This document shows positions 3,036 to 22,820 of a DNA stretch of 35,602 bases, piece after piece. This DNA comes from Desulfobacteraceae bacterium (lineage in GTDB: Bacteria; Desulfobacterota; DSM-4660; Desulfatiglandales; Desulfatiglandaceae), in the NCBI GenBank assembly GCA_030612945.1, contig JAUWMY010000001.1, positions 1 to 35,602 on the forward strand, given 5' to 3'. The notes beneath the pieces were generated by a model that saw only the letters and a program-made list of their open reading frames with translations, was not told the origin of the DNA and did not search any database. A program made the translations under genes and the position numbers. Position 1 is the stretch's first letter, and each line of letters begins with the position of its first letter.

Positions 3036-3177
3036 AATAAGTGCCTAAAGTGCCTAAAGTGAACTAAAGTGCCTAAAGTTATGGAACGCTCCGCTGATCT
3101 ACATCGAGGTTTTTGTCAAAACAGGAGCGAAGCGTTCATCCAATAGTCAATAGTCAATCGAAAATAGTCAATTCTTA
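3036..3177. repeat. full composite junction element: nonamer array AAGTGCCTA x4 (3039-3080), core inverted repeat GAACGCTCCGCT (3084-3095) / AGCGAAGCGTTC (3126-3137) around a 30-nt loop, heptamer array AATAGTC-like x5 (3142-3176)
   Basis: Read directly from the sequence. It fills the entire gap between the tape-measure stop and the next gene's TTG start. Confidence 0.9.
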
Positions 3178-6003
3178 CTGGTATTTCACCGCTTCCTGCA
3201 CAATCTTCCGTCCCCGGCCTCGCATGAAGCGCTCAAATTCGCCCGTGATTTCCCTGCTCGCTCTCATGGAGTCCCTGGAGCCGTCCACCTGGATTGAAGG
3301 CTGGAAGTTGACGATCACGCTTGCGCCCTCGCCCGGCGGGGTCACCCGTTCCCCACGATGTAAAATTGCGGGACCGGTGACCGGCACATAATCCGTGCCG
3401 TGCTGGTAGGATTCCATGCCCTGGAGCCAGCCCACCAGGCTGTTCAGCGCGGCAGTGGTTTCAGCATAAATATTTTGATATTCCAACGATGGCCGTTGAT
3501 ACGCCTCCTGGGCAATGCGCAGGTAATTCATCCAGAGATTTTGTATTTTGCTTACATCCTCCGGCGTCATATCAGGCCCCATAGCCGAGCCGATGGCCTT
3601 TTTGGCCAGGGCCAGCCTCTCCATTGCATCGAGGGGGCTGTCGCTGCCCGTGGTTAAATTAAGGAGCGTGGTCTGGAGGCCCTCTATCTGCCTGGCATAC
3701 TTGACCGTTGCTGTGGTTAAACCATCAAGGGCCATCTGCCTGTATTTCTCTATCTGGGCCAGGCGCTCCTCTGTGCTGCCCAACTGTGTCAACTGCTGTA
3801 TCCATGCATCAAACTGCTCATTTATATTATGTATCTGCACTTCCAGGTCCGAGACAGCCCCACCCATGACCGATGCCTGCCAGGAGATATCTTCCCACGC
3901 AAGCATCTCGGCAAAAGAAATATTGCCCGCAGCCCTTGCAGCCGCATTAAAGGCTTCCTCTACCTGGGCCGTCCATTTCTGCGCCATCGCCTGTATGACC
4001 TGCTCCGCGTTTTTGAATTTGAAATTATAGTCTGTGGGCTTAAAGACAATACTGCTCAGATAGGGCGCTAACTCATCTTGCAATTTCATTGGAACGCTTT
4101 TAAACATGGCGTCGGCGTTGGCCACTATCTGCTCATACAGATCGCGAATGGCATCTGTTATTTCCTCGCCTTTACCCCAATGTGTAAGTTTGGTGGTAGC
4201 TTCAAAGCCCTGCCCGGATTCATACGTTGCGCGAAAATAGTCTTCCGGGGCAAATTTATATCGAGGCTCTTTTTCTTTGCCAAGCCCCATCCATTTCCCT
4301 ACCATCTGGCCGAATGTCCAGCCCGCATAGGCCGCCATGCCATAAGCGCCAAGCGTGGCAACCCACGACGGCATTTGAGTGCCGGCGCCGGCGTCGGTTT
4401 CCTGTGTTGCTCCAAATAAACCGGATGCACTTCCCATGCTGGTGGCTATGGGGATCACGATCTTTTTCATGGCCGCGGCCGCCGCCATCTCCGCCAGCAT
4501 ACGGAGAAAGGCTTTTTTCATGCTGTCGAGAAAGTCATCGAAACTATCTAACTGGCCTGAGAATATATCGTAGAACGTATCGGCGAAATTCGACTGGACA
4601 TTGTCGATAAAGGTATTGTAAATTTGCTCCATTTCATTGACGGTCTTTTCGGTGGCTTTCTTTTCTTTTTCGGCCTTCCATACAGTAAATTCGGTTACGG
4701 CCTTTTTGCTTTTTTCCACCCACTCATCAGCCTGAGCCCAGTCCTGCCACATATCCCTGCTTTTATTGCCTGCTTCCTCTATTGCCCTGGCAAGTTCTTT
4801 TACTTCGCGAGTGGTTTCTTTCACTTCCTCCGGAGGGACAATTATTCCTCTGAAATGAGGTCCCTGCATGAGTCGTTCGCCTTTTTTGACAAGCTCTTCG
4901 AGCTCTTTAAAATTAGCAGTTGCTATTTCACTAAATTCAAGAACACCCGCCGAGGCCATGCCAAGCGCTTTAGATAGATTGCTAACCCAATTCTTCATAT
5001 GGGCCAAAGAGCCAAGCAACACAGCCCCTTTTCTTCCCCATAAGGCAAGTCCGACTATACCATACTTTATTATGTCAGGATCATAGGATATGATTTTCCA
5101 CATCGTCTTTAATGCCGTGATTATCTTTTCAATGTACTCAGGCACTGTTTGTTTTATTATTGCCTTATTTTGCTCGATCCAAAGCTCCATTTTGTCTGTC
5201 ACGCCGATCAGCTTTTCTTTAAGCAGATCAAAGACGCCTGCCTGGCCGATCTTGAGTGCCAGCTCGCCGAACTGTTCTTTCGCGTCACCTGTCAAGTTCC
5301 TTAACTGTACCAATCCACCATAGCCTGTCCTGGCCAGTGCCTCGGCCTGGCCCCCTACCTGTTTTTCGATCTCGCCCAATATGGCTGCAAAGTCACCGGA
5401 TTTCCCGATATTCTCATCGATGGTGATACCGACCCGGCGCAGTTCGCCTGCAAGGCCCATTGAAGCCTTACCCAGCATGTTGGCTGCCTGCCGGGTATCG
5501 CCGCCCATGAGCGCGGCAAGGTCGAGCATGGTCTTTATGGATCTGGGCAGCAAGTCGTCGGTAATGGCCTTGTAAGTTAGAAGAAATTTGGTGCCCTCTA
5601 TAGTGGCTTCGTCCCCGAAGGTCGTGACTTGCTGGAACGCCCCGGCCAGACCGATAAGCTCATCACGCAGTTGCGGCGTATACCGGCCCATGCTGCGCAT
5701 GGCCTGTTCCATACCGGCTACTGATTGCTGTTGTTTACCCGCTGCTTCCATAAAATCATTGATCCAGCGGATTGAACTTCTGATAACCATAAAGCCGCCA
5801 AAGGCGGCCACGAGTTTAAGAACGTTGCTATGTGTAGTCTTGAGCTTCTTATTAAAATCCCCCACACTCCGGCCCGTGCGCTTAAAGGACTGCTCGCCCT
5901 TGCGGCCGGTCTTATCCATCTGGTCGCCGAACTGCTTGACCTTGACCGTGCCCTTGTCGTCGACCTTTATCTCTATTTTAACGGTGCCGGTGTTTGTAGA
6001 CAT
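3175..6003 (-). CDS. tail tape measure protein (942 aa)
   Basis: Largest ORF in the window and mostly helical. Has a core resembling TP901-family tape measures (GDEATIEGTKFLLTY...AANMLGKASMGLAGEL) and a Gly/Ala hydrophobic segment. Immediately preceded by a chaperone gene carrying a frameshift signal. Confidence 0.9.
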   Translation of the reverse strand: MSTNTGTVKIEIKVDDKGTVKVKQFGDQMDKTGRKGEQSFKRTGRSVGDFNKKLKTTHSNVLKLVAAFGGFMVIRSSIRWINDFMEAAGKQQQSVAGMEQAMRSMGRYTPQLRDELIGLAGAFQQVTTFGDEATIEGTKFLLTYKAITDDLLPRSIKTMLDLAALMGGDTRQAANMLGKASMGLAGELRRVGITIDENIGKSGDFAAILGEIEKQVGGQAEALARTGYGGLVQLRNLTGDAKEQFGELALKIGQAGVFDLLKEKLIGVTDKMELWIEQNKAIIKQTVPEYIEKIITALKTMWKIISYDPDIIKYGIVGLALWGRKGAVLLGSLAHMKNWVSNLSKALGMASAGVLEFSEIATANFKELEELVKKGERLMQGPHFRGIIVPPEEVKETTREVKELARAIEEAGNKSRDMWQDWAQADEWVEKSKKAVTEFTVWKAEKEKKATEKTVNEMEQIYNTFIDNVQSNFADTFYDIFSGQLDSFDDFLDSMKKAFLRMLAEMAAAAAMKKIVIPIATSMGSASGLFGATQETDAGAGTQMPSWVATLGAYGMAAYAGWTFGQMVGKWMGLGKEKEPRYKFAPEDYFRATYESGQGFEATTKLTHWGKGEEITDAIRDLYEQIVANADAMFKSVPMKLQDELAPYLSSIVFKPTDYNFKFKNAEQVIQAMAQKWTAQVEEAFNAAARAAGNISFAEMLAWEDISWQASVMGGAVSDLEVQIHNINEQFDAWIQQLTQLGSTEERLAQIEKYRQMALDGLTTATVKYARQIEGLQTTLLNLTTGSDSPLDAMERLALAKKAIGSAMGPDMTPEDVSKIQNLWMNYLRIAQEAYQRPSLEYQNIYAETTAALNSLVGWLQGMESYQHGTDYVPVTGPAILHRGERVTPPGEGASVIVNFQPSIQVDGSRDSMRASREITGEFERFMRGRGRKIVQEAVKYQ

Positions 6004-6670
6004 TGCTCAAGCCTTCCCAGATCGAGCCATTCTTCATAGGTTAAATCATTTGCCCTGAAGGGATATCCCGCTTCCCTCAGGGTGCGGACACGTAAGAGTT
6101 TGATTGTATAAGGATGAAGATCTTCGGCACGCATTTTCTGGCAGTTGCCGCAGGCCCATTCCAGGTTGTCTCCGAATTCTGCCTCGCACTTTTCCTGCTC
6201 TGCCTCATTACAAAGCCCTTCCTTGATCGCCCGAAGATCCTCGGTTAGTTTTTTTCAGCGTCCTCTGTAGTCGATCCGCCATCTTCCTCTTCATTCATGA
6301 TCTCCGCCGAAGCCTCGAAGACGTGGGCCGCTAACAGCTCTACGATATCGGACGCGTACTTCATCATGAGGTCTTTCCATTCCGGATCATGGTGCGGTGA
6401 CTTCGGATCACTGGCAATGGGAATGTCTTTGCCGCCCTTCTTAATAATAAAGTCCCCCTCACGGATCCCGGCCAGGATCTTAAGCCCGAATTTCTGCCGG
6501 GCCTGGGCCGTGCGAAAGAGCAGCTTATTGCGTGTCCGCCGGATGCTCTCGTTACTAAACGCGGCCCGCTCCTCGGTCGTAGGCCGACGGTAATAAACCT
6601 CCAGCTCCATGTTTGAAATGTTATCCCAGATCTTCAATGTATTGAGACCATCATCCATTATTCTCGGCAT
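5973..6670 (-). CDS. tail assembly chaperone frameshift product (lambda GT-like), made by a -1 slip in the A7 run at 6249-6255
   Basis: The -1 frame is open for 92 codons from 6248 to the TAG at 5973-5975 (LTEDLRAIKEGLCNEAEQEKCEAEFGDNLEWACGNCQK...LEQCLQTPAPLK) and overlaps the tape-measure start. This stretch is absent from the ORF track because it has no start codon of its own. Confidence 0.6.
6245..6670 (-). CDS. tail assembly chaperone (lambda G-like), 141 aa
   Basis: Small acidic-tailed ORF lying between the major tail candidate and the tape measure. Ends GAA AAA AAC TAA, with an A7 slippery run. RBS AAGGGAG lies 6 nt upstream of the ATG at 6670. Confidence 0.8.
   Translation of the reverse strand: MPRIMDDGLNTLKIWDNISNMELEVYYRRPTTEERAAFSNESIRRTRNKLLFRTAQARQKFGLKILAGIREGDFIIKKGGKDIPIASDPKSPHHDPEWKDLMMKYASDIVELLAAHVFEASAEIMNEEEDGGSTTEDAEKN
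6249..6255 (-). promoter_or_regulatory. -1 programmed frameshift slippery sequence (mRNA G AAA AAA C directly before the TAA)
   Basis: Seven consecutive T on the plus strand at 6249-6255. This is the canonical position in the chaperone gene just upstream of the tape measure. Confidence 0.6.
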
Positions 6671-6684
6671 GTTTGCTCCCTTCT

Positions 6685-6823
6685 AAGAATTGAATATTGA
6701 CTATTGTCTATTGACTATTTAATGAACGCTATGCTCCTATTTTAAGGATCTTTGTTTTTGTCAAAATAAAGCGAAGCGTTCCTCAACTTTAGGCACTTCG
6801 AACTTTAGGCATTTTAGGCACTT
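6685..6823. repeat. full composite junction element in the opposite orientation: GACTATT-type heptamers (6685-6718), core 6724-6735 / 6770-6781, nonamers TTTAGGCAC x3 (6787-6823)
   Basis: Read directly. It is the mirror arrangement of the 3036-3177 element. Confidence 0.9.
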
Positions 6824-6837
6824 CTTTCTTCAATCAC

Positions 6838-8304
6838 CTACGCCGCATAGGTGGACTGCAAATTCTTCACATTCACAATCACACTCCCATAAGTATCATC
6901 CTCAAGCACGGTCAGATCCCCTGCCTCGGCCACGCGCTTGCCGTCCACATTGAGCGGCGCGTTCAGGACCGCAACCTTGGGGAAGATGATCTCCACCTGG
7001 TATTTGTGGGGGGTGTCATATATGGCGCCCTCGCACAGGATATAGACACCGAAATCATCGTTATCATCGATATGCTGCTGGAGGATATATTCCCGGAATT
7101 CCCGGTCCAGCTTGATGGTCTGGATCCGGGCCGGTCTGAATGCCCTGGACGCATATGAATCCCCCGCGCCCGGCACAAACTCGATCTCCATGTTATTATT
7201 AAACGCCCACTCGATGCTCCGGATCTCGGCGTCCAACTCACGGCCGCCCTCGAATGCGCTGCCACTCCAGGTACCGCCCAGTTTCACGGTCATTTCGGCC
7301 ACCCTCAGGGGTGTCTCCGATACCCTGGCGGGAAAGGTCATCCAGGCATCCGTAATGCACTCCCAGGTTACGGTGCCGTCCACCACGGTCTCGCCGATAG
7401 TGGTGGGCCAGGCCCCCGGTTCGCCCGCGCCCGATGTACCGGCAACCGTACAGATATACCAGTAATCGTTTAGAACGGTCGGCTTGCAGCGGTCGTCGGC
7501 GGAGTATGCCGTGGTGGCCGCCCAATCGTCCGGCACTACTTCATCCGGTATATAAAGGATTTTATAGTCCTTCAGGGCACTCGCTCCGCCTGCACTGGTA
7601 ATAGTAATGACCGCAGGCGTGGCGTCGGAAACGACGCTGTAGTCCACCTCCGTCCAGACACCTGACGTCAGCTCTATGCGAATCCGCTGCACATTCTGGA
7701 GCCTTTCCGCTGCATCGGCGCCCTCTACCCCATTGGCAGCCAGGGTCAGGGCCACGGCATCATCGAGTGCATTGACGGTTTCCTCATGGACATTATCGGT
7801 CACCTTGCCGGTGCCTTTTATGTCGCCCCGGATCTTGACCCAGTCGTCCGCCGCAAACGTGGCCGCAAACGAGTCCACGAACATAGAGGCAAAGCGCCGC
7901 TTCAGGACGGTCTTTCCAAAGCGCTGCGCCGCGGTAAAACACGGTAACGACCGGGACGCATCTTCGTCGTCCTCAATGGGCGTAAGGGTATGTTCATGCC
8001 CGGTGCCTGCAGCGCCAGTGCTGATGGCCCCCAGGGCATAAGCCAATAGAAGCGCGAAGTGCTGGGGCTGGGCCTTTTCAAAATTAAATGATCCAACGGC
8101 CAGGCCTCCCAGGTCATAAATGGTATCCGGCTCTTCGTTGCCCGTGAGCTCCTCGGCATTACTCTCCCTTCTCGGCTCCAGGTTTATCACATCGCTCATG
8201 GCCACGAGCATAGAGGTATCGAGTGTCTGCTCTTTGTTGATGGCCGTTTCCTTATTGTTGGCAGATACCGCCAACAGGTTATGTGTTGCTCTCCAGGATC
8301 TCAT
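6838..8304 (-). CDS. candidate major tail (tube) protein with an inserted Trp/Cys-containing beta-rich domain (488 aa)
   Basis: Sits immediately upstream of the G/GT chaperone pair, the slot occupied by lambda V. Has a strong RBS module (GCGACTGAAAGGAGC-N5-ATG). Unusually large for a tube protein. Central segment: DDWAATTAYSADDRCKPTVLNDYWYICTVAGTSGAGEPGAWPTTIGETVVDGTVTWECI. Confidence 0.45.
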   Translation of the reverse strand: MRSWRATHNLLAVSANNKETAINKEQTLDTSMLVAMSDVINLEPRRESNAEELTGNEEPDTIYDLGGLAVGSFNFEKAQPQHFALLLAYALGAISTGAAGTGHEHTLTPIEDDEDASRSLPCFTAAQRFGKTVLKRRFASMFVDSFAATFAADDWVKIRGDIKGTGKVTDNVHEETVNALDDAVALTLAANGVEGADAAERLQNVQRIRIELTSGVWTEVDYSVVSDATPAVITITSAGGASALKDYKILYIPDEVVPDDWAATTAYSADDRCKPTVLNDYWYICTVAGTSGAGEPGAWPTTIGETVVDGTVTWECITDAWMTFPARVSETPLRVAEMTVKLGGTWSGSAFEGGRELDAEIRSIEWAFNNNMEIEFVPGAGDSYASRAFRPARIQTIKLDREFREYILQQHIDDNDDFGVYILCEGAIYDTPHKYQVEIIFPKVAVLNAPLNVDGKRVAEAGDLTVLEDDTYGSVIVNVKNLQSTYAA

Positions 8305-8448
8305 TTTTAGCTCCTTTCAGTCGCAGGGTTCAAAGGTTCAGGGTTCAAGGTTCAGGGGTTTCTGCTCTTTGGTTTCTGACTGGAGTTTATTCCGGTATTC
8401 CCGGAACCCTCTGACTTCTGATCTCTGATCTCTGACTTCTGACCTCTG
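8305..8448. repeat. junction module: RBS block GCTCCTTTCAGTCGC, GGTTCAR heptamers (8326-8360), 29-bp hairpin motif (8385-8413), TCTGAYN heptamers x5 (8410-8448)
   Basis: Read directly. Confidence 0.9.
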
Positions 8449-8597
8449 GCTTTTATCGGTTTGATTTCTTCAAACTTCCTCTTCTCCTCGGGCGGTACTT
8501 CCCCATACGCCTTGCCTCGCACAAACTTCCTCCCGGCAAAAGGCCCGTCCACCACGTCAAAATTCTCAATTCCTTTTTTAAGTTTATACTGGGTCAT
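8352..8597 (-). CDS. small virion-module protein (81 aa; the last ~28 residues are encoded by repeat arrays)
   Basis: The ATG overlaps the upstream gene's stop. The C-terminal RGQKSEIRDQKSEGSGNTGINSSQKPKSRNP is a translation of the TCTGAYN array, the 29-bp hairpin motif and the GGTTCAR array. The stop TGA lies inside that last array. Confidence 0.5.
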   Translation of the reverse strand: MTQYKLKKGIENFDVVDGPFAGRKFVRGKAYGEVPPEEKRKFEEIKPIKARGQKSEIRDQKSEGSGNTGINSSQKPKSRNP

Positions 8598-9043: not shown

Positions 9044-9182
9044 AATAAGTGCCCTTTTCGATTGACTATTTTCGATTGTCTATTTGATGAACGCTTCGCT
9101 CCTATTTTGACAAAAACCTCGATGTAGATCAGCGTAGCGTTCCTTAGATAATCGTCAATATTCAATAGTCAATAGTCAATTC
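9044..9182. repeat. full composite junction element: AAATAAGTGCC, GACTATT-type arm (9059-9085), core 9089-9100 / 9131-9142 with the loop inverted relative to 3096-3125, AATAGTC-type arm (9143-9182)
   Basis: The loop CCTATTTTGACAAAAACCTCGATGTAGATC is the reverse complement (2 mismatches) of the loop at 3096-3125. Confidence 0.9.
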
Positions 9183-9608
9183 TTACCATCCCTTCAGCTT
9201 TTCCCTGGAAAATATCCTGTCGCTCGATGAGATCTCGGGATAATTGGTCCCTGCAGGCGTGCCGTCCGGGTCATCCTCGCCGAGAGATACCAGGCCCTTG
9301 GGTACTTTTTCCAGGAATGCGATCCTATCGTCGTATCTCTCCTTGATAGATTCCGGAGCGCCCCGGCGTCTGCTATAGAGATTGTAGATCGCTATATCCA
9401 CAGACACGATCAGTATTATCGGCGGGACGGTGGTAAACGGCACAGTGTACTTTGTGCCGCAATAGCTGTCGATCTCGGCATCGGCATTCGCGATCGCACG
9501 CGTAACCTTGTCCTCATCAACGACGCCGGCATCCTCATCATCAGTTAACTGGATGAGGACGTCCTCTTCCATTTGTTCCAGGATATCCGCTTCTGTGCAG
9601 TAGGGCAT
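9183..9608 (-). CDS. Mu gp36-like head-tail adaptor (DUF1320-like), 141 aa
   Basis: MPYCTEADILEQMEEDVLIQLTDDEDAGVVDEDKVTRAIANADAEIDSYCGTKYTVPF...YNLYSRRR matches the recollected DUF1320 pattern. RBS ACGGAG lies upstream of the ATG. Confidence 0.75.
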   Translation of the reverse strand: MPYCTEADILEQMEEDVLIQLTDDEDAGVVDEDKVTRAIANADAEIDSYCGTKYTVPFTTVPPIILIVSVDIAIYNLYSRRRGAPESIKERYDDRIAFLEKVPKGLVSLGEDDPDGTPAGTNYPEISSSDRIFSREKLKGW

Positions 9609-9616
9609 TGCTTGCT

Positions 9617-9644
9617 CCGTTACGGGTTGCGGGTTACGGGTTTA
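9617..9644. repeat. heptamer array GGGTTRC x4
   Basis: Read directly. On the mRNA strand it supplies the TAA stop of the upstream gene and ends in ACGGAG-N7-ATG. Confidence 0.85.
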
Positions 9645-9921
9645 TTCGCGGGCCTTTTTCCCCTGACTTTTTACCCGCCTGTTTTTTGACCTCTGCCTTC
9701 TCTTTCCTCTTTTCCCGGAGTACCGGGATCCCGGTATTGAGCGGAGCGCCGGGACCTGATTCCTGCTTATCCTTCACGGCCTCGACGGTGAGCATGGGCT
9801 CAGCCCTTAAGGTCTCCAGATCTCCTTTGGAAAACTTATCATTCGGATATTCAACGGCCCCTTTGGGATGTGCCACCCCGCAGCGCCTGAAATTATGCCT
9901 TTTACTCGTTATACGAATCAT
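9634..9921 (-). CDS. FluMu HI1506-like small head-module protein (95 aa from the second ATG)
   Basis: MIRITSKRHNFRRCGVAHPKGAVEYPNDKFSKGDLETLRAEPMLTVEAV resembles the FluMu N-terminal domain family that follows gpT. AAGGAG lies 6 nt before the ATG at 9921. The stop TAA falls inside the AACCCGY heptamer array. Confidence 0.6.
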   Translation of the reverse strand: MIRITSKRHNFRRCGVAHPKGAVEYPNDKFSKGDLETLRAEPMLTVEAVKDKQESGPGAPLNTGIPVLREKRKEKAEVKKQAGKKSGEKGPRINP

Positions 9922-9936
9922 GTTCGCTCCTTTCAT

Positions 9937-10069
9937 TCGATTGACTATTTTCGATTGTCTATTGACTATTGGATGAACGCTTCGCTCTCTTGTTTAAAAA
10001 AACCTAAGATAGAAAAAGCGAAGCGTTCTCTTGATAATAGTCAATAGTCATTAGTCAATATTCAATTCT
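9937..10069. repeat. full composite junction element: GACTATT arm (9939-9970), core 9975-9986 / 10017-10028, AATAGTC arm (10033-10069)
   Basis: Positions 9939-9981 are identical over 43 nt to 17450-17492. Confidence 0.9.
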
Positions 10070-10981
10070 TTATCCCGCTCCCGTGGACCCGTAACTCATC
10101 TGCCATAAACCGTATCCACCTGCGGCCCTGGCCTCGGCACCAAACCGGAACTTTTTGCGCATGAAGACGTTATCCGCCTCCGGCGTTGTCTGCTGCACAA
10201 AGACCGGCGCCTTCCGTTCCTGGTATACAAACGGCTTGAGCGGCCGGTTAGTAACATGCAGCATCCATTGCGTAGCGCTCGTAATCCTGGGATTGACAAG
10301 AAGCGTGGCCGTTCCCCTGTACGGGTTGGGCGATTCGTCTGTGAGCTTTTCGTTTTCCAGCAAAATCTTGCCGGTGGCTTCTAAAGCCGGTCCGACTTCG
10401 AGCAGATCCGGTACAAGCGCCAGAGGGCGGCCCTCGTCATCCTTAAAACTCATGATGGCCAGCCTTGCAGCCCCGTAGCTTGCAGCTGCACCGGCCGCGT
10501 TTGCAACGGACAGGGCGGCCGTGCCGTGATTGCTCACGCTGGATCCTGCCACGTCGTGGTCGGTGTCGTAGAAATACTGGCCGTCGTAGCATTCATTGGT
10601 GAATGCGTCGTTTTTGAGATCCGCGTCGAGCTCATCGGGCAACTGTTTGGAGCTGTATCCCGCCTCCTGGGCCTGTGGACCATAGATCCCGATATTGTCA
10701 TCTTCTATATCGTTCCGGTCCACCTCCACTGTGGCCTCAAAGTCGTCGTTTACGATGGTGTACTTGAAGGCCTCAAGGGTCTTCAATACCTTGTCTCCCA
10801 GCCACTTGCGCATCTTGGGAAACCTGGAGAGCCAGGTGTAATCGTTCTGACTCGAACCGCTGGGGACCTTCATCGTGGTCTTTGCCCAGAGGCTGGGAGC
10901 CGCGTCGAATGCCTTGTTAAACGTGGTTTTCAGGTTAATGAAAACCGCTGTGAGATTGGTTTTGTTTACCAGCATGATCAT
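10070..10981 (-). CDS. Mu gpT-like major head subunit (303 aa)
   Basis: The N-terminus LVNKTNLTAVFINLKTTFNKAFDAAPSLWAKTTMKVPSGSSQNDYTWLSRFPKMRKWLGDKV matches the recollected Mu-like gpT family. The position after the protease/scaffold also fits. Confidence 0.88.
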   Translation of the reverse strand: MIMLVNKTNLTAVFINLKTTFNKAFDAAPSLWAKTTMKVPSGSSQNDYTWLSRFPKMRKWLGDKVLKTLEAFKYTIVNDDFEATVEVDRNDIEDDNIGIYGPQAQEAGYSSKQLPDELDADLKNDAFTNECYDGQYFYDTDHDVAGSSVSNHGTAALSVANAAGAAASYGAARLAIMSFKDDEGRPLALVPDLLEVGPALEATGKILLENEKLTDESPNPYRGTATLLVNPRITSATQWMLHVTNRPLKPFVYQERKAPVFVQQTTPEADNVFMRKKFRFGAEARAAGGYGLWQMSYGSTGAG

Positions 10982-11029
10982 TCTCCTTTTCTGAAATATT
11001 TTATGCCCCTACCGGGGCGTTAAACTGCT

Positions 11030-11902: not shown

Positions 11903-11914
11903 TTTTTACCTCCC

Positions 11915-11952
11915 GTTTTGATTGACTATTTTCGATTGATTATTGACTATTG
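11915..11952. repeat. half element: GACTATT-type arm only (GATTGACTATTTTCGATTGATTATTGACTATTG)
   Basis: Read directly. It lies upstream of the RBS GGGAGG of the 11902 gene. Confidence 0.85.
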
Positions 11953-11962
11953 AAAAACAAAC

Positions 11963-12085
11963 TCAATTAACAATCTCCTTTTTTGCCCCCGGACTTTGTT
12001 CCGCTTCCTTTGCCCGGCGCTCCTCCTTCGCCTCCGCCATGACCATCTTTTGGCCCTTTAGCATCTTCAGGAGGCCCGGTTCCAT
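11963..12085 (-). CDS. possible small ORF (40 aa, MEPGLLKMLKGQKMVMAEAKEERRAKEAEQSPGAKKEIVN)
   Basis: The only open frame in an otherwise unassigned 188-bp gap. Below the track's length cutoff and has a weak RBS. Confidence 0.25.
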   Translation of the reverse strand: MEPGLLKMLKGQKMVMAEAKEERRAKEAEQSPGAKKEIVN

Positions 12086-12090
12086 CTCTT

Positions 12091-13110
12091 TTAGGCACTT
12101 TGAAGCCCTCCGTATTGTTTGATGTCCTCATCCGTATTGCCCATCATCTTGGCCACGGCGAGCACGGTCTCATCGATCACCCCTTCACCTTTATTTTTCT
12201 GGTTAGGAAGCTCTCCCACCGGGATCACTACCGGGGCCTTGGCCACGAAGGTCTTAAAGCCTTCCAGGTCTCGCAGTGCATATTCTTCCGCCCATTTCTT
12301 CTGGTCGGGCGAGATCTTGCCTTCAAGCGTCGCCTTTGCCACGACCTCATCCGCGTCCCGTTTGCTTAGATCCTTTTGCAGCCTGTCAAATTCCTCCCGA
12401 GATACGGATCCCTTTGAGGACTGTTTGAGCGCATGGATCGAAGCCACTACCGTAGACGCATCCCCCTCTGTCAGGTCCAATGCCTGAAGCACATCTTTGG
12501 CGATCACCTCCACCTGCTCAGGGCCTTTATTGGCCTTTGCCACGACCGCTTCCACGGCCTCCACAACCTTGTCCTCATCCGCCCCGGCCTCTATGCCGAG
12601 CTTTGCAATAAGCCTTTTCAAAAAATCCATATTTGTCTCCTCCTCCTGGAATTCCGATTCCAGCTTTGCCAGGATCGGAGTTAAATTGTTTGTCTTGGGC
12701 GCATTAGTGAGGGCCACCGAATGCACCGCGATCAACCTTTTGTCCTTCTTTCGCACAATGGAGACGGGCGAAAAATACCGATACTCTTTTTTCAGGATGA
12801 ACTCCTCTGCTTCATCGTTCCACTCTACCCTCACGGATATTCCCTTTGCCTCTTCCCAGCGATACTCTTTTATCCAGCCAGCAGCGGGCGCCTTGACTCC
12901 CTTAAGGGTCTGATGTTCATAGTCGATGACGATATCGTTTCCCCGTCTCGAGACAAAGGAGACAAGGGTATCAAATGCCTGTTTGTCCACGAGGAACGGT
13001 TTCTCCCCTTCGAGTTCAGTCCAGTCAGCCTCATAAAGCAGCATCCACTCCGGGATTTTACCGTCCTGGACATCGATTGCCGCGATAATGGCCTTTGCTA
13101 AAAATTGCAT
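12091..13110 (-). CDS. Mu gpI-like head protease with a C-terminal scaffold (Z-like) region, 339 aa from the ATG at 13110
   Basis: The track start (TTG at 13143) lies inside the TGAACCY array. The real start is most likely the ATG at 13110, preceded by GCGACTGAAAGGAGC. Contains the ...VIDYEHQTLKG... motif typical of Mu I proteases, followed by a helical, acidic C-terminal half. Confidence 0.82.
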   Translation of the reverse strand: MQFLAKAIIAAIDVQDGKIPEWMLLYEADWTELEGEKPFLVDKQAFDTLVSFVSRRGNDIVIDYEHQTLKGVKAPAAGWIKEYRWEEAKGISVRVEWNDEAEEFILKKEYRYFSPVSIVRKKDKRLIAVHSVALTNAPKTNNLTPILAKLESEFQEEETNMDFLKRLIAKLGIEAGADEDKVVEAVEAVVAKANKGPEQVEVIAKDVLQALDLTEGDASTVVASIHALKQSSKGSVSREEFDRLQKDLSKRDADEVVAKATLEGKISPDQKKWAEEYALRDLEGFKTFVAKAPVVIPVGELPNQKNKGEGVIDETVLAVAKMMGNTDEDIKQYGGLQSA

Positions 13111-13157
13111 TTGTGCTCCTTTCAGTCGCGGTTCAGGGTTCAAGGTTCAAGGTTCAC
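13111..13157. repeat. junction module: RBS block GCTCCTTTCAGTCGCG plus GGTTCAR heptamers x4 (13130-13157)
   Basis: Read directly. The gpG stop codon lies inside the last unit. Confidence 0.9.
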
Positions 13158-13609
13158 AGTTTCCCTCGAACAATAAAATCACCCAGCGCCGCCTTCATCT
13201 CCACCCAGTCCTCATCCTGCACCATCATGTAAGGGCGTGCCGGGATAGTGACCTTCCTGCCACGACCGGCCTTGCCCCCGAAGTGATGTATGGCCGCGTA
13301 TACTTTGTTCGCCGATATCACTACTTTATCGTTAAACGCCTTATAATTAACCGCGCCCATCAGGCCACCCGCCATGCCCTGCTCTCTCAGGATAGCAGTG
13401 CCCTTCTTTGTCTTCAGTGTCTCGAGAGAGAGCGATGTCCACTTCTCGGGCCTCCCGCCTTTCTCAAAGTTCCGGACAATGGATGTCCTTGCAATAGCGC
13501 CTATAATCTTCATGGCAGGCGCGGGATTGCCCATCCGCTTGAGGATACCGCCCAGGAGTTTCCGCACTTCCCGATCGTCAATTTTTACGCTTACCGCTAC
13601 TCCACCCAC
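13154..13609 (-). CDS. Mu gpG-like virion morphogenesis protein (151 aa)
   Basis: VKIDDREVRKLLGGILKRMGNPAPAMKIIGAIARTSIVRNFEKGGRPEKW...VYAAIHHFGG matches the recollected gpG / phage virion morphogenesis family. The stop TGA is donated by the first TGAACC unit. The start codon is uncertain (GTG at 13609). Confidence 0.78.
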   Translation of the reverse strand: MGGVAVSVKIDDREVRKLLGGILKRMGNPAPAMKIIGAIARTSIVRNFEKGGRPEKWTSLSLETLKTKKGTAILREQGMAGGLMGAVNYKAFNDKVVISANKVYAAIHHFGGKAGRGRKVTIPARPYMMVQDEDWVEMKAALGDFIVRGKL

Positions 13610-13650
13610 TGACTTCTGACCTCTGATTTCTGACCTCTGATCTCTGACCT
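13608..13650. repeat. TCTGAYN heptamer array x6
   Basis: Read directly. It starts at the nucleotide after the stop of the F-like C-terminal ORF. Confidence 0.9.
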
Positions 13651-13851
13651 TCAGTCCCTGAATCCTTCCTTCCCAGGATTATAATCCCATCCGGGATCGA
13701 TCCCTTTCGGTATCTTATGGATCTCCCCCGTGGCCTTATCCACCCATTCATACTTCGTGATCTTCGGGGCCTTGGTCCGGATGGGATGCGCCCCACCGGC
13801 CTCTTCTTTTTTCAGTCTTTCCACCTCACGGGCGGAGTGGCTCACCACGCC
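13651..13851 (-). CDS. C-terminal continuation of the Mu F-like protein (same frame, directly after the TGA)
   Basis: Codon GGC (13849-13851) followed by VVSHSAREVERLKKEE...IPKGIDPGWDYNPGKEGFRD is in frame with the upstream part. The total would be 236 aa if the TGA is decoded. Confidence 0.55.
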   Translation of the reverse strand, partial: GVVSHSAREVERLKKEEAGGAHPIRTKAPKITKYEWVDKATGEIHKIPKGIDPGWDYNPGKEGFRD

Positions 13852-14361
13852 TCACTTGCACCCCCAGCCGTTTGGCGGGTAATGGGTCTCCCACCAGGGA
13901 TCGTCCGCGGGCAGGACCAGGTTATACCAGTGACTGTGCTCCTCTCTCGGCTCTGCCGCACGGGCGCCCACATACCTGAGAAACGGCCTGGCCTTGAGGA
14001 CATCGGGATCCATCATCTGGGCATAGTGTCCGACCGAATATGCCACGCTCAGGTTGGTATTGAAAATTACCGCCGTTCTCCATGCCCTGCCGCCCTTATA
14101 GATCCAGCCATGCCGCTGAACGATATCATCGAATCCCTTTCGGAATTCGGCCAGGGTCGTTCCCTCGGAAATGCCTTTTTTCACGGCCTCGCGCAGGTCT
14201 TCGAGCAGCTCGGACTTCATGGCCCCGGCCACGGAGAAAGCGCGGGCATGCATGGCCTTCCACAGGTCCTTCCAGGTGGCCGTGGGCACATTGAGCTTTT
14301 TCCTAAAAAACTCGATTGCCTCATCAAAGGGGAGTCTTATATATTCAGCGCTCGATAACAT
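13852..14361 (-). CDS. Mu F-like (SPP1 gp7 family) head morphogenesis protein, first 169 codons, ending at an in-frame TGA
   Basis: ...EEHSHWYNLVLPADDPWWETHYPPNGWGCK is followed by TGA (13852-13854), at the position where family members carry the second Cys of the PPNGW-x-C-(R/K)-C motif. The synteny portal, F, G also fits. Confidence 0.8.
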   Translation of the reverse strand: MLSSAEYIRLPFDEAIEFFRKKLNVPTATWKDLWKAMHARAFSVAGAMKSELLEDLREAVKKGISEGTTLAEFRKGFDDIVQRHGWIYKGGRAWRTAVIFNTNLSVAYSVGHYAQMMDPDVLKARPFLRYVGARAAEPREEHSHWYNLVLPADDPWWETHYPPNGWGCK

Positions 14362-15898
14362 CGAACCTCCCGGCCAGTTCGGCCACGGTAAAGGCCCTCT
14401 GCATCAGGGTTCCCAATGTTGATTCATCCATGTCCTTGTAAAGATCCAGCAGACCGTCCCGGAATTCCCCCAGGGAGTTCACCGAGGCAAGGAGATCCTC
14501 CACAGGCTTCATGAGATCGTCTAAAGAGGCCTCTGACAGGGTTTTATCGCCCAGCGCGCCTAATGTTACGGCCGGAGACAGGTCTTCGCCGCCAGGGCCT
14601 GATTTGGCCGTCAGACGGCTATATTTTGCCGGTATCGCTACCTGCTGCCGCCCCACGACCGGCTCGTTTCCCTCCGGTTCGGGAATATTGAATTCCTGGC
14701 GCACAAACGAGACCGGCATCTCCACGTTATGCTCTAACAGGCCGGTTACCCACTCGGCTTTTTCCTTGAGATTCTCGGCCTCTTCCCAGATCGGTCTATA
14801 TCCTGGGATCGGCGTATCCCACCCGAAATTAAACCCCACAATGGGCCGGATGAGCTGATACCGGATTGTCGCGGCATCGGCCCTGGTATCGGCCTTGGCC
14901 AGATCGAGCCTGACCTCGTTGTGGGTTTTGCTCGCTGCGTAGCTGCCCTTGTCTCCAACCTCGGCCGTGAGGGTCTGGCCCAGGATTGCCTTGGACATTT
15001 CTTTATTGCCGAACTGGGCCAGGTTTTTATATAGGTCTCCGGACACGCTGCCCTTTGCGGCCTCGATAAACTCGATCTCCGTGGATTTGGAGATAATGCC
15101 TGCCGCATCCGACCCCAGCGAGGATATGGCCGTGATCAGGGCGTCCCTATCTTCGGGGGTACTCCCCGTATCGTATTTCCCGAGCCTGAGGGGCATCCCG
15201 TAGACTTCGCAGAACACAACCCAGTCCTTGATGGCATAGTTTTTGAAGAGAAACCACCAGGCGCAGACCCTGAGGATACCGGCCCTGGTGGGATGACCGC
15301 TTTTGCCGCCGTAACGATGAAGGAGGGTTTTCCATGCAGGGATCTCAATCCCCATCGGATCGTCGTCCGTCAGGAGGAGCGGGGTCCGCAATAAATAGCC
15401 CAGGCGATCGGTGAAGAGAAAGCGCTTCTGATCGATAAACGTAAAGCCTCTGGGCAGGGCCTGGCTTTCCGATACGTCCCAGTCGATCTCCAGGGCAGAG
15501 AAGCCTTTGCCCACGCCGTCCTGGAGGGCCACAAGGGTGTCCTCAAAATCGGTCATGTTGTCAAAAAACTCTTCCACGAATTCAGCGACCTGCACGTCGC
15601 GCCTGTCCTCGGACGCGGGCCGGACCTTGAATTCCACGTCCAGGACCGCGTTTTTTCTTTTCCCCACCTCACCAAACAGGTGCCCGTCTTTTTCCTCCAT
15701 CTGCTCAAAGAGCTGGGCCTGCCTCTGGACATTGCCCGCGTCCGCCTCCTTGAAGATGGTTGCGAGCCTCTCGGGCGTCAGGCCTGCCGCGACATATTCC
15801 CGCCAGGAATCCAGTACCGGGGCCGCGGCCAGCGGTCGTTTCTCAGGTTTTTTTTCGACCCGATACTGCCTGCTGAATTGATCTAAGATCATCCCCAT
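14345..15898 (-). CDS. Mu gp29-like portal protein (DUF935-like), 517 aa
   Basis: Size and position between the large terminase and F fit a portal. It overlaps both neighbours by a few codons. Sequence character is consistent with the Mu-type portal family (recollection). Confidence 0.85.
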   Translation of the reverse strand: MGMILDQFSRQYRVEKKPEKRPLAAAPVLDSWREYVAAGLTPERLATIFKEADAGNVQRQAQLFEQMEEKDGHLFGEVGKRKNAVLDVEFKVRPASEDRRDVQVAEFVEEFFDNMTDFEDTLVALQDGVGKGFSALEIDWDVSESQALPRGFTFIDQKRFLFTDRLGYLLRTPLLLTDDDPMGIEIPAWKTLLHRYGGKSGHPTRAGILRVCAWWFLFKNYAIKDWVVFCEVYGMPLRLGKYDTGSTPEDRDALITAISSLGSDAAGIISKSTEIEFIEAAKGSVSGDLYKNLAQFGNKEMSKAILGQTLTAEVGDKGSYAASKTHNEVRLDLAKADTRADAATIRYQLIRPIVGFNFGWDTPIPGYRPIWEEAENLKEKAEWVTGLLEHNVEMPVSFVRQEFNIPEPEGNEPVVGRQQVAIPAKYSRLTAKSGPGGEDLSPAVTLGALGDKTLSEASLDDLMKPVEDLLASVNSLGEFRDGLLDLYKDMDESTLGTLMQRAFTVAELAGRFDVIER

Positions 15899-17436
15899 GC
15901 TCCTTTTGCCGCTAACCGGCGTTTGACAAGACTCTCGTATTCTGCTTTGCCGCTGCCCATCGTTTTTAATAACGCCACCGCCCCCTCCAGCGCATCGGCC
16001 CCGTCATCGGGAAAGGTTGGCTGATCGAGATAAAGGAGCTGCTCCACAACCTTATCCTGGTCGCTGTCGCCCTTGGAAAACCTGAGACGACCATGCTCCA
16101 CCAGGTGACTGAGGCTGGCCACGATCCGGGCCTCTTTGTTTGTGCTGTGGTTTATGGATTGCACTGGCAAATAATATCCGTGCCGTTTTGCGGCCTCATC
16201 TATTACCGCCTGCAGGAAATCCTTGAGCGCGTTATCCTCGGCCCCCATCCTGATCCAGCCGATCTCATCATGCTGTCGATAGCAGGCGTCCATCATGGTG
16301 GCCGGGGATGCTTTTTTTACCCAGCAATGGAGCACATAATAAATCATGGCCTGCCGGTCTAAGCCCACCGCCACCAGTCCCTTATCGTCCCCGGTCTCTT
16401 TGCTGGATGGATCTAAAAATGAAATCTTTGTGAGTTCCACGTCCTTGATCTCATCCTCGTGGTAATAACGGATCCACTCTTCCCTGAAGGCGCTTTCTTC
16501 ATCCGTGGGATTGTTTTGCTTTTCCTTGTTAAAGGCCACCGAGCCCATGATCTTTTTTTGCTTCAGGAGCTTTTCGATTGGGTGCGCCGCGGGCCAGAGG
16601 GATGTGCCGTCTTCCTGGATGGCCCTGTAGATACGGCTTATCCAGTGGTTATAAGGCTCTTCCTCGCCTCGTATGATGATATTGAGGGCCGCCCTTTTGG
16701 CCAGTATTGTGCCAATGAGAAAAAGGTTGCCCGTCGATGCGATGCCCGGATATACCGTTTCCTTGATCCATTTCAAAAGGCCCTTGACTATGCGCGGATT
16801 TTTGACATTCTGGTCATTTTCCAGGTCGTCGAAAATAACTAAGTCGGGCCTGTATTGTTTATGCTTGAGTCCCCGGATGCGTTGACCCCGGCCACGGGCA
16901 AGGACACGCACATCATTTTTTGTCACAAAACCATAAACAGACCAGTCCACCTCGGCCAGATGCCCGAAATCCTGGCGAAGACGCTGATTCATTGCCAATT
17001 CCAAAAGCAGGTACCCCACCAGGTCCCCGGCCAGATCCTCTGTGTCAGAGCCCAGGATGACAAAGTGCCTGAGTTCATGACATATCTGGTGAATCACATA
17101 GCCGAAGCTGGTAATAGTGCTCTTTGCAAATTCCCGTGGGGCCGCAACCACAACCGGGACCATAACGTCCGCCGGGTCATTCGGGTCGGGCCGGGTGTCC
17201 AGATCCTCGATCAGGTCATGGTGAAAGGGCGCCTCCTCGGCGTAGAAATAATGGGGCAGGTAGGTGCGGAAAAAATAGAAGTGATCGTACTTAGACCGCT
17301 CGACCCGTTTTTTTTGTTCCTCCGGCTCATCAGAAAAAGGCAATACTTCGGCCGTCAAAGCGGCAAGGACATTGTTGTATCTCTTTTTGAATTCCGCCTT
17401 AGTCAGCTTCTGCTTTATGGTAATCTTTTTTGCCAT
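15889..17436 (-). CDS. Mu gp28-like terminase large subunit (515 aa)
   Basis: P-loop-like VVAAPREFAKSTI, a DD-containing Walker B region (LVIFDDLEND) and a C-terminal nuclease-like region. RBS ACGGAGAA lies before the ATG at 17436. Confidence 0.88.
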   Translation of the reverse strand: MAKKITIKQKLTKAEFKKRYNNVLAALTAEVLPFSDEPEEQKKRVERSKYDHFYFFRTYLPHYFYAEEAPFHHDLIEDLDTRPDPNDPADVMVPVVVAAPREFAKSTITSFGYVIHQICHELRHFVILGSDTEDLAGDLVGYLLLELAMNQRLRQDFGHLAEVDWSVYGFVTKNDVRVLARGRGQRIRGLKHKQYRPDLVIFDDLENDQNVKNPRIVKGLLKWIKETVYPGIASTGNLFLIGTILAKRAALNIIIRGEEEPYNHWISRIYRAIQEDGTSLWPAAHPIEKLLKQKKIMGSVAFNKEKQNNPTDEESAFREEWIRYYHEDEIKDVELTKISFLDPSSKETGDDKGLVAVGLDRQAMIYYVLHCWVKKASPATMMDACYRQHDEIGWIRMGAEDNALKDFLQAVIDEAAKRHGYYLPVQSINHSTNKEARIVASLSHLVEHGRLRFSKGDSDQDKVVEQLLYLDQPTFPDDGADALEGAVALLKTMGSGKAEYESLVKRRLAAKGAWG

Positions 17437-17448
17437 ATTCTCCGTTTA

Positions 17449-17597
17449 TGATTGACTATTTTCGATTGTCTATTGACTATTGGATGAACGCTACGCTCCT
17501 GTTTTGACAAAAGCCTCGATGCAGATCAGCGGCCTCCGGCTCGGAGAGAGCGTTCCCTTGATAATAGTCAATAGTCAGTAGTCAATATTCAATTCTT
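17449..17597. repeat. full composite junction element whose right core is interrupted by a mini-palindrome (CTCCG-GCT-CGGAG, within 17527-17554)
   Basis: Read directly. Arms at 17450-17481 and 17561-17597. Confidence 0.9.
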
Positions 17598-18662: not shown

Positions 18663-18693
18663 TTTTAAAGCTCCCCTTTTGATTGATTATTTT

Positions 18694-20046: not shown

Positions 20047-20060
20047 TATGCCCTCTCGGG

Positions 20061-20630: not shown

Positions 20631-20633
20631 CTT

Positions 20634-22807: not shown

Positions 22808-22820
22808 AAAAGGGGTTCTC

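Follow-up and report, generated by a model that had tools for sequence, protein, structure and literature searches.

Heptamer-built intergenic repeats at gene junctions of a Mu-like prophage and of Desulfobacterales chromosomes

The stretch of DNA analyzed here (hereafter the window) comprises the 35,602 nucleotides of contig JAUWMY010000001.1 from the Desulfobacteraceae assembly GCA_030612945.1, and our subject is a family of palindromic repeats that sits between its genes. The window is occupied by a Mu-like transposable prophage whose structural and early genes all lie on the minus strand. Positions 33010-35454 are 95.8% identical to a contig (JAUUWD010000122.1, L108) of a prophage-free Desulfobacteraceae metagenome-assembled genome (MAG), and this match places the prophage end at about 33009/33010, beside the tRNA-Met terminator, and identifies the host lineage. 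A Firmicute host, which the strong GGAGG ribosome-binding sites might have suggested, is rejected on the basis of this match. Because L108 has unrelated sequence where the prophage would sit, it represents an empty site for the whole phage. Among cultured phages and plasmids no similar DNA was found, one chance match aside, and the only transposase gene in the window is of Mu type; no other transposase, invertase or reverse transcriptase gene was found there.

An earlier note on this DNA had listed five full copies of a composite palindrome, beginning at 3036, 6685, 9044, 9937 and 17449, and a coreless copy at 20634, and all six are there (Table 1). Its finer observations hold as well: positions 9939-9981 and 17450-17492 are identical over 43 of 43 nt, elements 6685 and 3036 are mirror images along about 140 nt, and copy 17449 carries an extra mini-palindrome, a 17-nt insert (GCCTCCGGCTCGGAGAG, 17532-17548) placed precisely at the N of AGCG-N-AGCGTTC. 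That list can be extended by half elements, by arrays consisting of arms only, at 11921-11954, 18663-18694 and 23531-23568, and by at least five other heptamer families in other gaps. With one mismatch allowed, the core 12-mer GAACGCTNCGCT has 13 sites in the window against 0.64 expected (none of 100 shuffles reaches 13), and the arm 10-mer ATTGACTATT has 47 sites against 2.56. Arrays with a period of 7 form 32 segments, compared with 0-3 for periods 5, 6 and 8-11, and period 7 also prevails in relatives of the phage and in chromosomal loci. Such arrays are present in about 21 of the 24 intergenic gaps of the prophage, the full elements being their largest members. In gene direction, each element reaches exactly from a stop codon to the next ribosome-binding site (RBS), and all phage copies lie between co-directional genes.

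The building block of the family is a half element, in which a linker particular to its type joins the 12-nt core AGCG-N-AGCGTTC to an arm array. Three types can be told apart: H1 (linker ATCC, arm AATAGTCAATAG(T/A)CAATCGAAAATAGTCAAT), H2 (linker YCTTGAT, arm AATAGTCAATAGTCAKTAGTCAATATTCAATTCTT) and H3 (linker CWTAAC followed by TTTAGGCAC repeats), the arms of the first two being AATAGTC repeats. A full element consists of two half elements opposed across a 26-35-nt loop in any pairing: H2 with H1 in copies 9044, 9937 and 17449, H3 with H1 in copy 3036, and H2 with H3 in copy 6685. Lone halves, lone arms and the coreless arm-T7-arm form are also present, while other gaps hold arrays of TTGAACC (D), AGGTCAG/AGATCAG (E), GGAAATA/GGAAAGA (F), CGCAGAG or ACCCGTA, giving A, B (a 9-mer), D, E, F, G and ACCCGTA as the repeat families of the window. 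All four bases are found at the N of the core, which in copy 17449 is replaced by the 17-nt hairpin, a behavior that fits an unpaired loop or bulge base. We take GCG-N-AGC to match the d(GCGNAGC) mini-hairpin; Hirao and Yoshizawa are said to have found that d(GCGNAGC) makes very stable GNA-triloop hairpins. The 17-nt insert itself is a collapsed copy of CCTCCGGCTCGTAGANCCTACGCCTCGGAGAG, a small palindromic repeat of Desulfobacterales that we found in three loci (L109 at 4468, L131 at 4873 and L141 at 2807). In L141 it likewise lies inside an array-core-array element, and small repeats of this kind therefore nest within one another.

Table 1. Repeat elements, heptamer arrays and principal genes of the window
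Feature	Coordinates	Strand or orientation	Details
Full mosaic element (3036)	3036-3177	Reverse relative to genes	Between the tape-measure gene stop (3175) and the next gene; plus-strand order: B arm (GTGCCTAAA x4), core GAACGCTCCGCT, 30-nt loop, core AGCGAAGCGTTC, ATCC linker, H1 arm (AATAGTCAATAGTCAATCGAAAATAGTCAAT)
Full mosaic element (6685)	6681-6830	Reverse relative to genes	Between the tail-tube-like gene (6838-8304) and the 6245-6670 gene; plus-strand order: A_L arm, GAACGCTATGCT, 34-nt loop, AGCGAAGCGTTC, B' arm (TTTAGGCAC x3)
Full element (9044)	9044-9185	Minus, forward orientation	mRNA-sense order: stop, A_L arm, GAACGCTACGCT, loop, AGCGAAGCGTTC, H1 arm, one B' unit, TTG start
Full element (9937)	9922-10072	Minus	After the gpT major head gene; order: stop, A_L arm, core, 30-nt loop, core, H1 arm, GAAAGGAG RBS, ATG at 9921
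Full element (17449)	17437-17600	Minus	Between the 17598-18041 gene and the large terminase; nested 17-nt mini-palindrome breaks the core at N
Coreless form (20634)	20630-20703	Minus	A array, T7, H1 array, then a separate intrinsic-terminator-like hairpin (~20575-20620)
Half element	20068-20154	Minus	A_L arm and core GAACGCTCCGCT (20101-20112), then TTGAACC (D) array, RBS
Half element	24100-24152	Minus	A arm and core (24104-24115), then T-rich stretch, RBS
Half element	26691-26754	Minus	B arm GTGCCTAAA x3 and core (26698-26709); 94% identical to 6763-6826
Arm-only array	23531-23573	Minus	Sense TAAGAATTGACTATTTTCGATTGACTATTGACTATT; fills the stop-to-start gap
H1 arm alone	11913-11957	Minus	Directly upstream of RBS; sense AATAGTCAATAATCAATCGAAAATAGTCAAT-CAAAACGGGAGG; duplicated in L089
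Short H1-arm remnant	18663-18694	Minus	Upstream of RBS
Junction with other families	8305-8467	Minus	E array 8406-8467, hairpin module 8377-8413, D array 8324-8376, RBS
D array (TTGAACC) and shared RBS module	13126-13164	Minus	RBS module GCGACTGAAAGGAGC; upstream of the Mu-like protease gene
Further D arrays	20050-20102, 22817-22855, 25367-25397		
E arrays (AGGTCAG/AGATCAG)	13604-13665; second at 25851-25898	Minus	
ACCCGTA x3 array	9609-9644	Minus	25-nt gap
Early-region F arrays (GGAAATA/GGAAAGA)	22254-22421, 22843-22883, 23308-23362	Minus	Inverse array at 23230-23290
CGCAGAG-repeat 5' leader with RBS	27771-27827 and 28445-28501	Minus	Two 57-nt direct copies, 86% identical; related 26062-26110
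Tail-tube-like gene	6838-8304	Minus	
Mu gpT major head protein	10070-10981	Minus	
Mu protease I	12091-13143	Minus	
Mu portal	14345-15898	Minus	
Large terminase	15889-17436	Minus	
GemA, Gam, MuB-like ATPase		Minus	
Mu-type transposase	28498-30783	Minus	
Repressor-like gene		Plus	
tRNA-Met gene	33062-33138		Followed by host DNA

Orthologous junctions in related phages show how the elements behave. Among 80 viral contigs whose head protein is 66-88% identical to that of the window, none carries the motifs of the window, and most have a hairpin of their own after the head gene, often formed from their own inverted heptamer arrays. Closer relatives at 80-88% nucleotide identity (L005, L089, L091, L092 and L200-L206) possess the same element family at different junctions. 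The junction at 17437-17597 is empty in L089, where the genes overlap (ATGGCTAA), and in L091 (TGAGAATG), and because it is compact in all distant relatives, the window copy is an insertion. Similarly, the junction at 9044-9182 is empty in L092 (TAGGCATG). Elsewhere one kind of spacer is exchanged for another. At 8305-8467, where the window has E and D arrays, L092 has a full H3-H1 element (B-core-loop-core-H1), and it has a core and H1 half element in place of the ACCCGTA array at 9609-9644; at the 6685 junction it shares the outer frame of the window around a different hairpin, GTGACAA. An H2-H1 element (A_L-core-loop-H1) lies at the 13126 junction in L089, the 20634 junction holds a full cored element in L206 and the coreless form in the window, and the head-gene junction of L205 has an H3-type palindrome (B..B') inside an identical outer frame (TAAGAATTGAA ... 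GAAAGGAGCGAAC-ATG). The family therefore turns over at stop/start junctions, with elements gained, lost and swapped on the timescale over which phages diverge to 80-88% identity. Identity among the copies of the window is 95-100%, compared with 75-83% for elements in the relatives and 80-88% for the flanking genes, and this likeness among paralogues reads as the signature of recent intragenomic copying or homogenization. Taken with the empty, refilled and swapped junctions, it indicates that the elements move or are converted, as the earlier note had proposed in suggesting mobility or gene conversion and looking to empty sites as the check. Comparison of filled and empty sites at 17437-17597 and 9044-9182 revealed no target-site duplication, and the ends are not sharp, the right ends differing; in the 9044 copy the start codon has been altered to TTG.

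Orientation can be followed through the same copies. Relative to the genes, copies 9044, 9937 and 17449 point one way and copies 3036 and 6685 the other, and the loop at 3096-3125 is, as had been noticed, the reverse complement of those at 9101-9130 and 17498-17527. Comparison of 3091-3172 with 17451-17532 shows that the loop, one core arm and the H1 heptamer arm are inverted as a single 82-nt block that is 95% complementary. Across the relatives, halves and loops assort freely. The orientation of individual heptamer families across relatives is too fragmented for an estimate of bias (62 families in 100 arrays).

The elements are not specific to phages, a point missed by the earlier note: the family is common to chromosomes of Desulfobacterales, the order of the host. 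The exact 18-mer ATTGACTATTTTCGATTG matched more than 106 stretches in the genome collection, with about 17 expected by chance. About half of 110 such matches lie outside any array and the other half within longer 7-nt arrays, and most of the array-bearing matches are Desulfobacterales contigs. There the layout is a stop codon, an ATTGANN array, a loop or hairpin, an NNTCAAT array ending in CAATCGAAAATAGTCAAT, and an RBS, with a related core, GGAGCGAAGCGAC, in some copies. The gene pairs rplK/rplA and rpoB/rpoC are separated by this arrangement, which is also present upstream of eno, rpsT, accC, argH, gap, ftsY and lysA. The array-containing chromosomal sites fall between tandem genes in 22 cases, between convergent genes in 5 and between divergent genes in 1, and none is inside an open reading frame (ORF). 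TTGAACC (D), E (CAGA-type) and ACCCGTA arrays occur in chromosomal loci too, and the host flank of the window, like many Desulfobacterales chromosomal junctions, carries the same arrays. Array density is about 1 per kb in the phage and at most 0.17 per kb in the chromosomal loci, even though those loci were chosen for having an array. Several matching contigs come from MAGs labelled as an archaeon, Bacteroidales, Anaerolineales or Pseudomonadota (L095, L099, L123, L132-L134, L147, L171 and L189), and their flanks are near-identical to the Desulfobacteraceae MAG CSMAG_30; these bins are probably contaminated, inflating the cross-phylum spread of the repeat. In the host flank of the window, a TTGAC-type heptamer array starts (35566-35602) upstream of the 34831-35430 gene. 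A fuller form of this array lies at 2538-2600 of L108 (AATCGCCAATCGAAAATAGTCAATCGTCAAT), and at this place the window has 111 nt that are absent from L108.

Folding was scored against dinucleotide-preserving shuffles, both as RNA and as DNA. The family can form hairpins: copies with matched arms and the coreless copy fold well, with z-scores of -3.3 to -6.3 as RNA and -4.1 to -7.2 as DNA (9044, RNA -3.3 and DNA -4.2; 9937, -6.3 and -7.2; 17449, -4.1 and -4.8; coreless 20634, RNA -5.9). The mixed-arm copies at 6685 and 3036 instead find a partner in one another: they are complementary along about 140 nt, with a cofolding gain of -84.6 kcal/mol compared with -8.6 +/- 3.7 for shuffles. As DNA this pair is a large inverted repeat, and as RNA it could potentially form a long-range stem that encloses the cistrons of the tail chaperone and the tape measure (6670 to 3175). 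At the junction after the major head gene, a strong hairpin (z < -2) is found in 92% of 62 distinct relatives (median z -4.6) while its sequence differs, and at this junction the sense strand is the more stable in 41 cases against 21 (Wilcoxon p = 0.002).

The elements are a mosaic family of intergenic repeats made from tandem heptamers, apparently non-autonomous, of a kind with those of cyanobacteria and Geobacter and with an organization resembling that of bacterial interspersed mosaic elements (BIMEs). The explanation that we favor, to which we would give about an even chance, is that these mosaic repeats spread by recombination and are co-transcribed as intercistronic hairpins, both the RNA-level function and the copying mechanism being inferred. 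Spread would proceed through recombination, gene conversion or template switching between common arrays and core 12-mers, and not through a transposase of its own. Since one arm is the inverted repeat of the other, either orientation could result when a donor is copied, and such copying would produce both the orientation independence of the family and the 82-nt en-bloc inversion. The elements would be co-transcribed with their flanking genes, and matched arms and core would then fold into an interrupted hairpin of 40-45 bp that reaches from a few nucleotides past the stop codon to a few nucleotides before the Shine-Dalgarno sequence. Such a hairpin would most likely serve as an intercistronic RNA structure, be it a barrier to 3' exonucleases, a site for a double-strand-specific RNase, or both. 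An insertion of 140 nt may be tolerated in translationally coupled operons because the hairpin would bring the stop codon and the next RBS together. Copies 6685 and 3036 would pair with each other, enclosing the chaperone and tape-measure cistrons in one long stem.

Several observations weigh against this explanation. Two of the five full copies, the mixed-arm 3036 and 6685, have no significant local fold (z -0.5 to -1.9; 3036, DNA -1.4 and RNA -1.9; 6685, -0.5 to -0.8). Copies in the window show no bias toward stability of the sense strand, the antisense being better in three of the five, and the chromosomal elements are likewise balanced (7:8). We accordingly rejected sense-strand-specific RNA selection for the window and chromosomal copies; a bias of that kind is seen only at the head-gene junction across relatives. 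The earlier note's idea of a structure-level function survives in part: it is upheld by the recurrent head-gene hairpin and its sense bias, but the window copies show no such bias and two of the five lack a significant local fold. The covariation in the core stem for which the note had proposed to test is not supported. When 11 distinct cores are aligned, 11 of the 12 stem positions either never change or do so on one side only, N and N' can pair in only 4 of the 11, and the covariation score lies below that of every shuffle. An invariant core with a non-covarying N would suit sequence-specific recognition or very recent copying just as well as a structure. Lone arms and lone core 12-mers also occur, and the hairpin is therefore not the sole constraint. 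Finally, the reach of the 18-mer across phyla cannot be taken at face value, since it reflects partly chance (about 17 matches) and partly mis-binning.

Comparison with known repeats supports the heptamer assignment. Seven-nucleotide units exceed all other periods, and the arrays are intergenic, belong to several families, occur in both orientations and fold where they form inverted pairs, as expected of the long simple repeats built of heptamers. Reports of tandem heptamers in bacterial intergenic DNA go back to 1990 and cover cyanobacteria, Geobacter, Xanthomonas and Beggiatoaceae, and to our knowledge no function or spreading mechanism has been established for them. Mazel et al. reportedly described the short tandemly repeated repetitive (STRR) heptanucleotides of cyanobacteria in 1990, and Jackman and Mulligan are said to have found in 1995 that the nif intergenic regions of Anabaena are variable but structured. 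STRR sequences resemble the arrays of the window in their tandem 7-nt units, in having several families per genome, in their intergenic position within operons, in the stem-loops formed by inverted pairs, in their variability among close relatives and in their unresolved function. They differ in unit sequence, and they have been described in chromosomes rather than phages, with no report of sharing between host and phage and no description of a 12-nt palindromic core, half-element types or a terminal unit adjacent to the RBS. A passage of PMC4692102 cites STRR for Calothrix, and heptamer repeats are in general excess in bacteria (PMC4692102, PMC4679880). Geobacter metallireducens has intergenic elements in many copies, each a run of four or five heptanucleotides (GGACCGG; MTYCTGA, depicted as hairpins) (Aklujkar et al. 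2009, PMC2700814). These too have dozens of intergenic copies and inverted heptamer pairs, in an organism then placed, as was Desulfobacterales, in the Deltaproteobacteria, and the E array of the window, read as its plus strand (CTTCTGA/TCTCTGA), is an exact or near match to MTYCTGA. The Geobacter elements were proposed as sites for the global regulators IHF/HU, have no core 12-mer and were not reported in phages, and the relation is one of motif resemblance only. The direct TAACTGA repeats of marine Beggiatoaceae, cyanobacteria and Bacteroidetes (MacGregor 2015, PMC4679880) lie a few nucleotides before the starts of many genes, those for ribosomal proteins and RNA polymerase included, with a patchy distribution that suggests horizontal spread. 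Unlike the arrays of the window, which have another unit and are mostly inverted pairs with a core, they are nearly all direct and in one orientation, with a single inverted case.

Resemblance to other extragenic repeats is one of organization. Like repetitive extragenic palindromic (REP) sequences and the BIMEs that they form, our elements are mosaics of palindromic units with alternating orientation and variable internal motifs, placed between co-transcribed or convergent genes, avoiding promoters and varying among strains; the chromosomal sites are likewise tandem or convergent, with divergent promoter regions nearly excluded (1 divergent). The transcribed hairpins of REP sequences and BIMEs stabilize upstream mRNA, and these repeats bind IHF and gyrase. 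REP units are imperfect palindromes of about 35 bp with a GTAG head, mobilized by REP-associated tyrosine transposases (RAYTs) and not typical of phages, whereas the window has heptamer arrays and the 12-mer AGCGNAGCGTTC with no GTAG-headed palindrome and no sequence similarity. BOX, Correia (Correia repeat enclosed element, CREE) and enterobacterial repetitive intergenic consensus (ERIC) sequences share the size of about 100-150 bp, the modular make-up (BOX has a variable number of boxB), the intergenic position in both orientations and, presumably, co-transcription, and their hairpins are processed by RNase III (Correia) or affect mRNA stability. Their terminal inverted repeats are defined, and Correia elements also show a TA target duplication; neither a target duplication nor fixed termini were found in our elements. 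The same lack of fixed terminal inverted repeats and of a target-site duplication, at 17437-17597 and 9044-9182, separates them from miniature inverted-repeat transposable elements, and a check for a parent insertion sequence (IS) found the sole transposase of the window to be of Mu type and the prophage end to be unlike the arrays. Among phages, Arbiol et al. reportedly described in 2010 promoter-early stem-loop (PeSL) cassettes of T4-type phages, implicated in the shuffling of gene modules, and Pope et al. are said to have described in 2011 the start-associated sequences (SAS) and extended start-associated sequences (ESAS) of cluster K mycobacteriophages, implicated in translation initiation. 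Both are repeated intergenic modules within one phage genome that lie beside gene starts with stem-loops. A PeSL contains an early promoter, of which none was detected in our elements, the SAS is a single 13-bp motif, and neither is heptamer-built or common to host housekeeping operons. Integron attC sites, which are imperfect palindromes downstream of every cassette and bounded by R''/R' core sites of the form RYYYAAC ... GTTRRRY, were rejected because the core ends in GCGTTC-ATCC or GCGTTC-CWTAAC and not, by eye, in GTTRRRY, and the flanked genes are syntenic phage structural genes. A terminator scan reported no full element and only a weak match at one half element (20116-20100), its overall yield being 24 against a background of 19.1 +/- 4.9. 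In Rfam 15 only tRNA-Met exceeded the gathering threshold, and relaxing to E <= 1 added two chance matches of microRNA precursors to the 9937 hairpin. A literature search on the motif strings gave only unrelated matches, such as the UL9 box of herpes simplex virus.

Among the alternatives, one that we consider unlikely has a host post-transcriptional factor (ribosomal protein S1, a cold-shock protein, a CsrA-like protein or a small RNA) bind the arrays as single-stranded RNA in 5' leaders and set downstream translation; the phage would copy host leader modules, and the palindromes would be a by-product of arrays standing on both sides. In its favor, the distance from the end of the H1 array to the RBS is 3-20 nt at many phage genes and chromosomal housekeeping genes, the D, E and G families have a single orientation directly upstream of the RBS, with D accompanied by a shared RBS module, and the same was proposed for the TAACTGA repeats (MacGregor 2015, PMC4679880). 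On the other hand, the same array also occurs reversed directly after stop codons and alone between a stop and a start (23531-23573), the many families of unrelated sequence would demand many factors, and the binding protein is putative.

A bolder and distinctly unlikely proposal is that the elements belong to a class of plug-in intercistronic linkers, not described so far and common to Desulfobacterales chromosomes and transposable phages. In each, a stop-proximal array, a GNA-triloop core, an RBS-proximal array and in many cases a Shine-Dalgarno sequence would make up a self-contained unit that is actively copied into stop/start junctions by an activity recognizing single-strand hairpins and is read by a host RNA-processing or translation factor. 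If so, the phage would have recruited the operon punctuation of its host to set the stoichiometry of its late proteins, and a 140-bp long-range stem would bracket the tape-measure cassette in the manner of an rRNA processing stem.

We judge it quite improbable that the elements are double-stranded DNA sites at which a nucleoid-associated or regulatory protein organizes or regulates the prophage, be it IHF/HU, a phage regulator, or gyrase in the way that it acts at REP/BIME sequences and at the Mu strong gyrase site. The sequence of the core 12-mer is invariant, lacks covariation and also occurs as a single site, both strands fold equally, three heptamers make 21 bp or two helical turns, and IHF/HU binding was the guess made for the Geobacter elements (Aklujkar et al. 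2009, PMC2700814). Nevertheless, divergent, that is promoter, regions are avoided (1 of 28 sites), promoter-like sites are at background level, the arrays are unlike the prophage end, and the relatives retain the hairpin rather than its sequence.

Very doubtful, too, is that the elements are miniature transposable elements moved in trans by a host enzyme acting on single-stranded DNA hairpins, such as a RAYT or an IS200/IS605-type TnpA, with the GCG-N-AGC core as the recognized mini-hairpin. Empty and filled sites exist, the absence of a target-site duplication is what Y1 transposases would leave, and the N of the core can be any base and tolerates a 17-nt insert, as expected of a loop base. 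Yet no gene for such an enzyme is in the window, the insertion boundaries are unsharp, with an altered start codon at 9044 and outer frames retained at swapped junctions, and the mosaic of halves, arm-only and coreless forms suits recombination better than the cut-and-paste of a defined unit.

The notion that the arrays are functionless products of replication slippage favoring 7 nt, tolerated in non-coding gaps, seems to us highly improbable. Of the long simple repeats of many bacteria, heptamers are the commonest, with polymerase slippage proposed as the source according to passages of PMC4679880 and PMC4692102 that cite Mrazek 2007, and array length does differ between relatives, with H1 duplicated in L089. 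Slippage in place cannot explain the recurrence of identical imperfect arrays (with the ATTTTCG unit kept) at many unrelated junctions and in many genomes, and it sits poorly with the density of arrays in a compact phage genome, at junctions that overlap in relatives, and with the family-wide conservation of hairpins.

That the core loop is an invertible DNA switch flipping within a population, the reading suggested by the earlier note, is scarcely credible: the loop does occur in both orientations relative to the genes between 12-bp inverted repeats, and L092 (H3-loop-H1) and copy 3036 (H1-loop-H3, both in loop direction) share halves with opposite loop motifs, but their loops differ in sequence, so that neither is a flip of the other, the window loop inverts only together with its core arm and heptamer arm, no invertase gene or any recombinase besides the Mu transposase is in the window, and no promoter was detected in the loop.

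Three further ideas were discarded. The arrays contain CGAAAA, as binding sites of the Mu transposase at the phage ends might, but the left end of the prophage (~33009) is free of arrays and ordinary chromosomal operons have them. TTGACT/TTGACA hexamers are not promoters by our scan, which stayed at background, and they do not stand at the right distance from any -10 hexamer. The idea that 7-nt units serve to place stop codons in each of the three frames holds for A, H1 and D and not for E and G, and is thus no general explanation.

For the mosaic repeats themselves, what is new here is a defined modular grammar, with its 12-nt core, its three half-element types and parts that assort freely, the gain, loss and swapping at orthologous junctions of close phage relatives, and the use of the same spacers by a virus and by housekeeping operons of Desulfobacterales, the order of its host. 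With about 20 such junctions in 33 kb and natural variants that have or lack an element, this phage is a far easier test bed than a bacterial chromosome for asking whether mRNA processing, translational coupling or recombination is under the control of the repeats. There are practical consequences as well, as gene callers misplace starts and invent ORFs across the arrays, and the repeats are likely break points in metagenome assembly. The start ATG of the mechanical ORF 9634-9936, for example, falls inside the H1 arm region, and relatives together with the GAAAGGAG RBS show the real start to be the ATG at 9921 (MIRITSKRHNF...). Comparable over-extension is likely for the ORFs at 26111-26698, 2241-3035 and 8352-8597.

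Some smaller features of the prophage deserve mention. Within the transposase frame, a (CAGAAGA)n heptamer array at 28791-28829 (residues ~651-664 of 761) lies past the last recognized domain, and is either a translated low-complexity tail or a sign that the ORF is over-extended. A 37-nt module with the hairpin TTCCGGTATTCCCGGAA recurs at 8377-8413, 23808-23844 and 30485-30521, the first two copies being 92% identical; the hairpin module lies between E and D arrays, and in L204 it ends a small gene. Between the 6245-6670 gene and the tape-measure gene is an array-free gap of 241 nt (6004-6244), at the usual place of tail-chaperone frameshift extensions. Next to the coreless copy, the stretch 20503-20633 combines a terminator-like hairpin (GGCCCGG...CCGGGCTTTTTT) with an AT-rich segment and is followed by an M15 peptidase (endolysin-like) gene; it is probably the border between the early/middle and late transcription units. 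In L206, whose cored element occupies the corresponding junction, an extra 55-nt segment with a promoter-like TTGACA ... GATAAT pair lies between the left array and the core (3040-3110).

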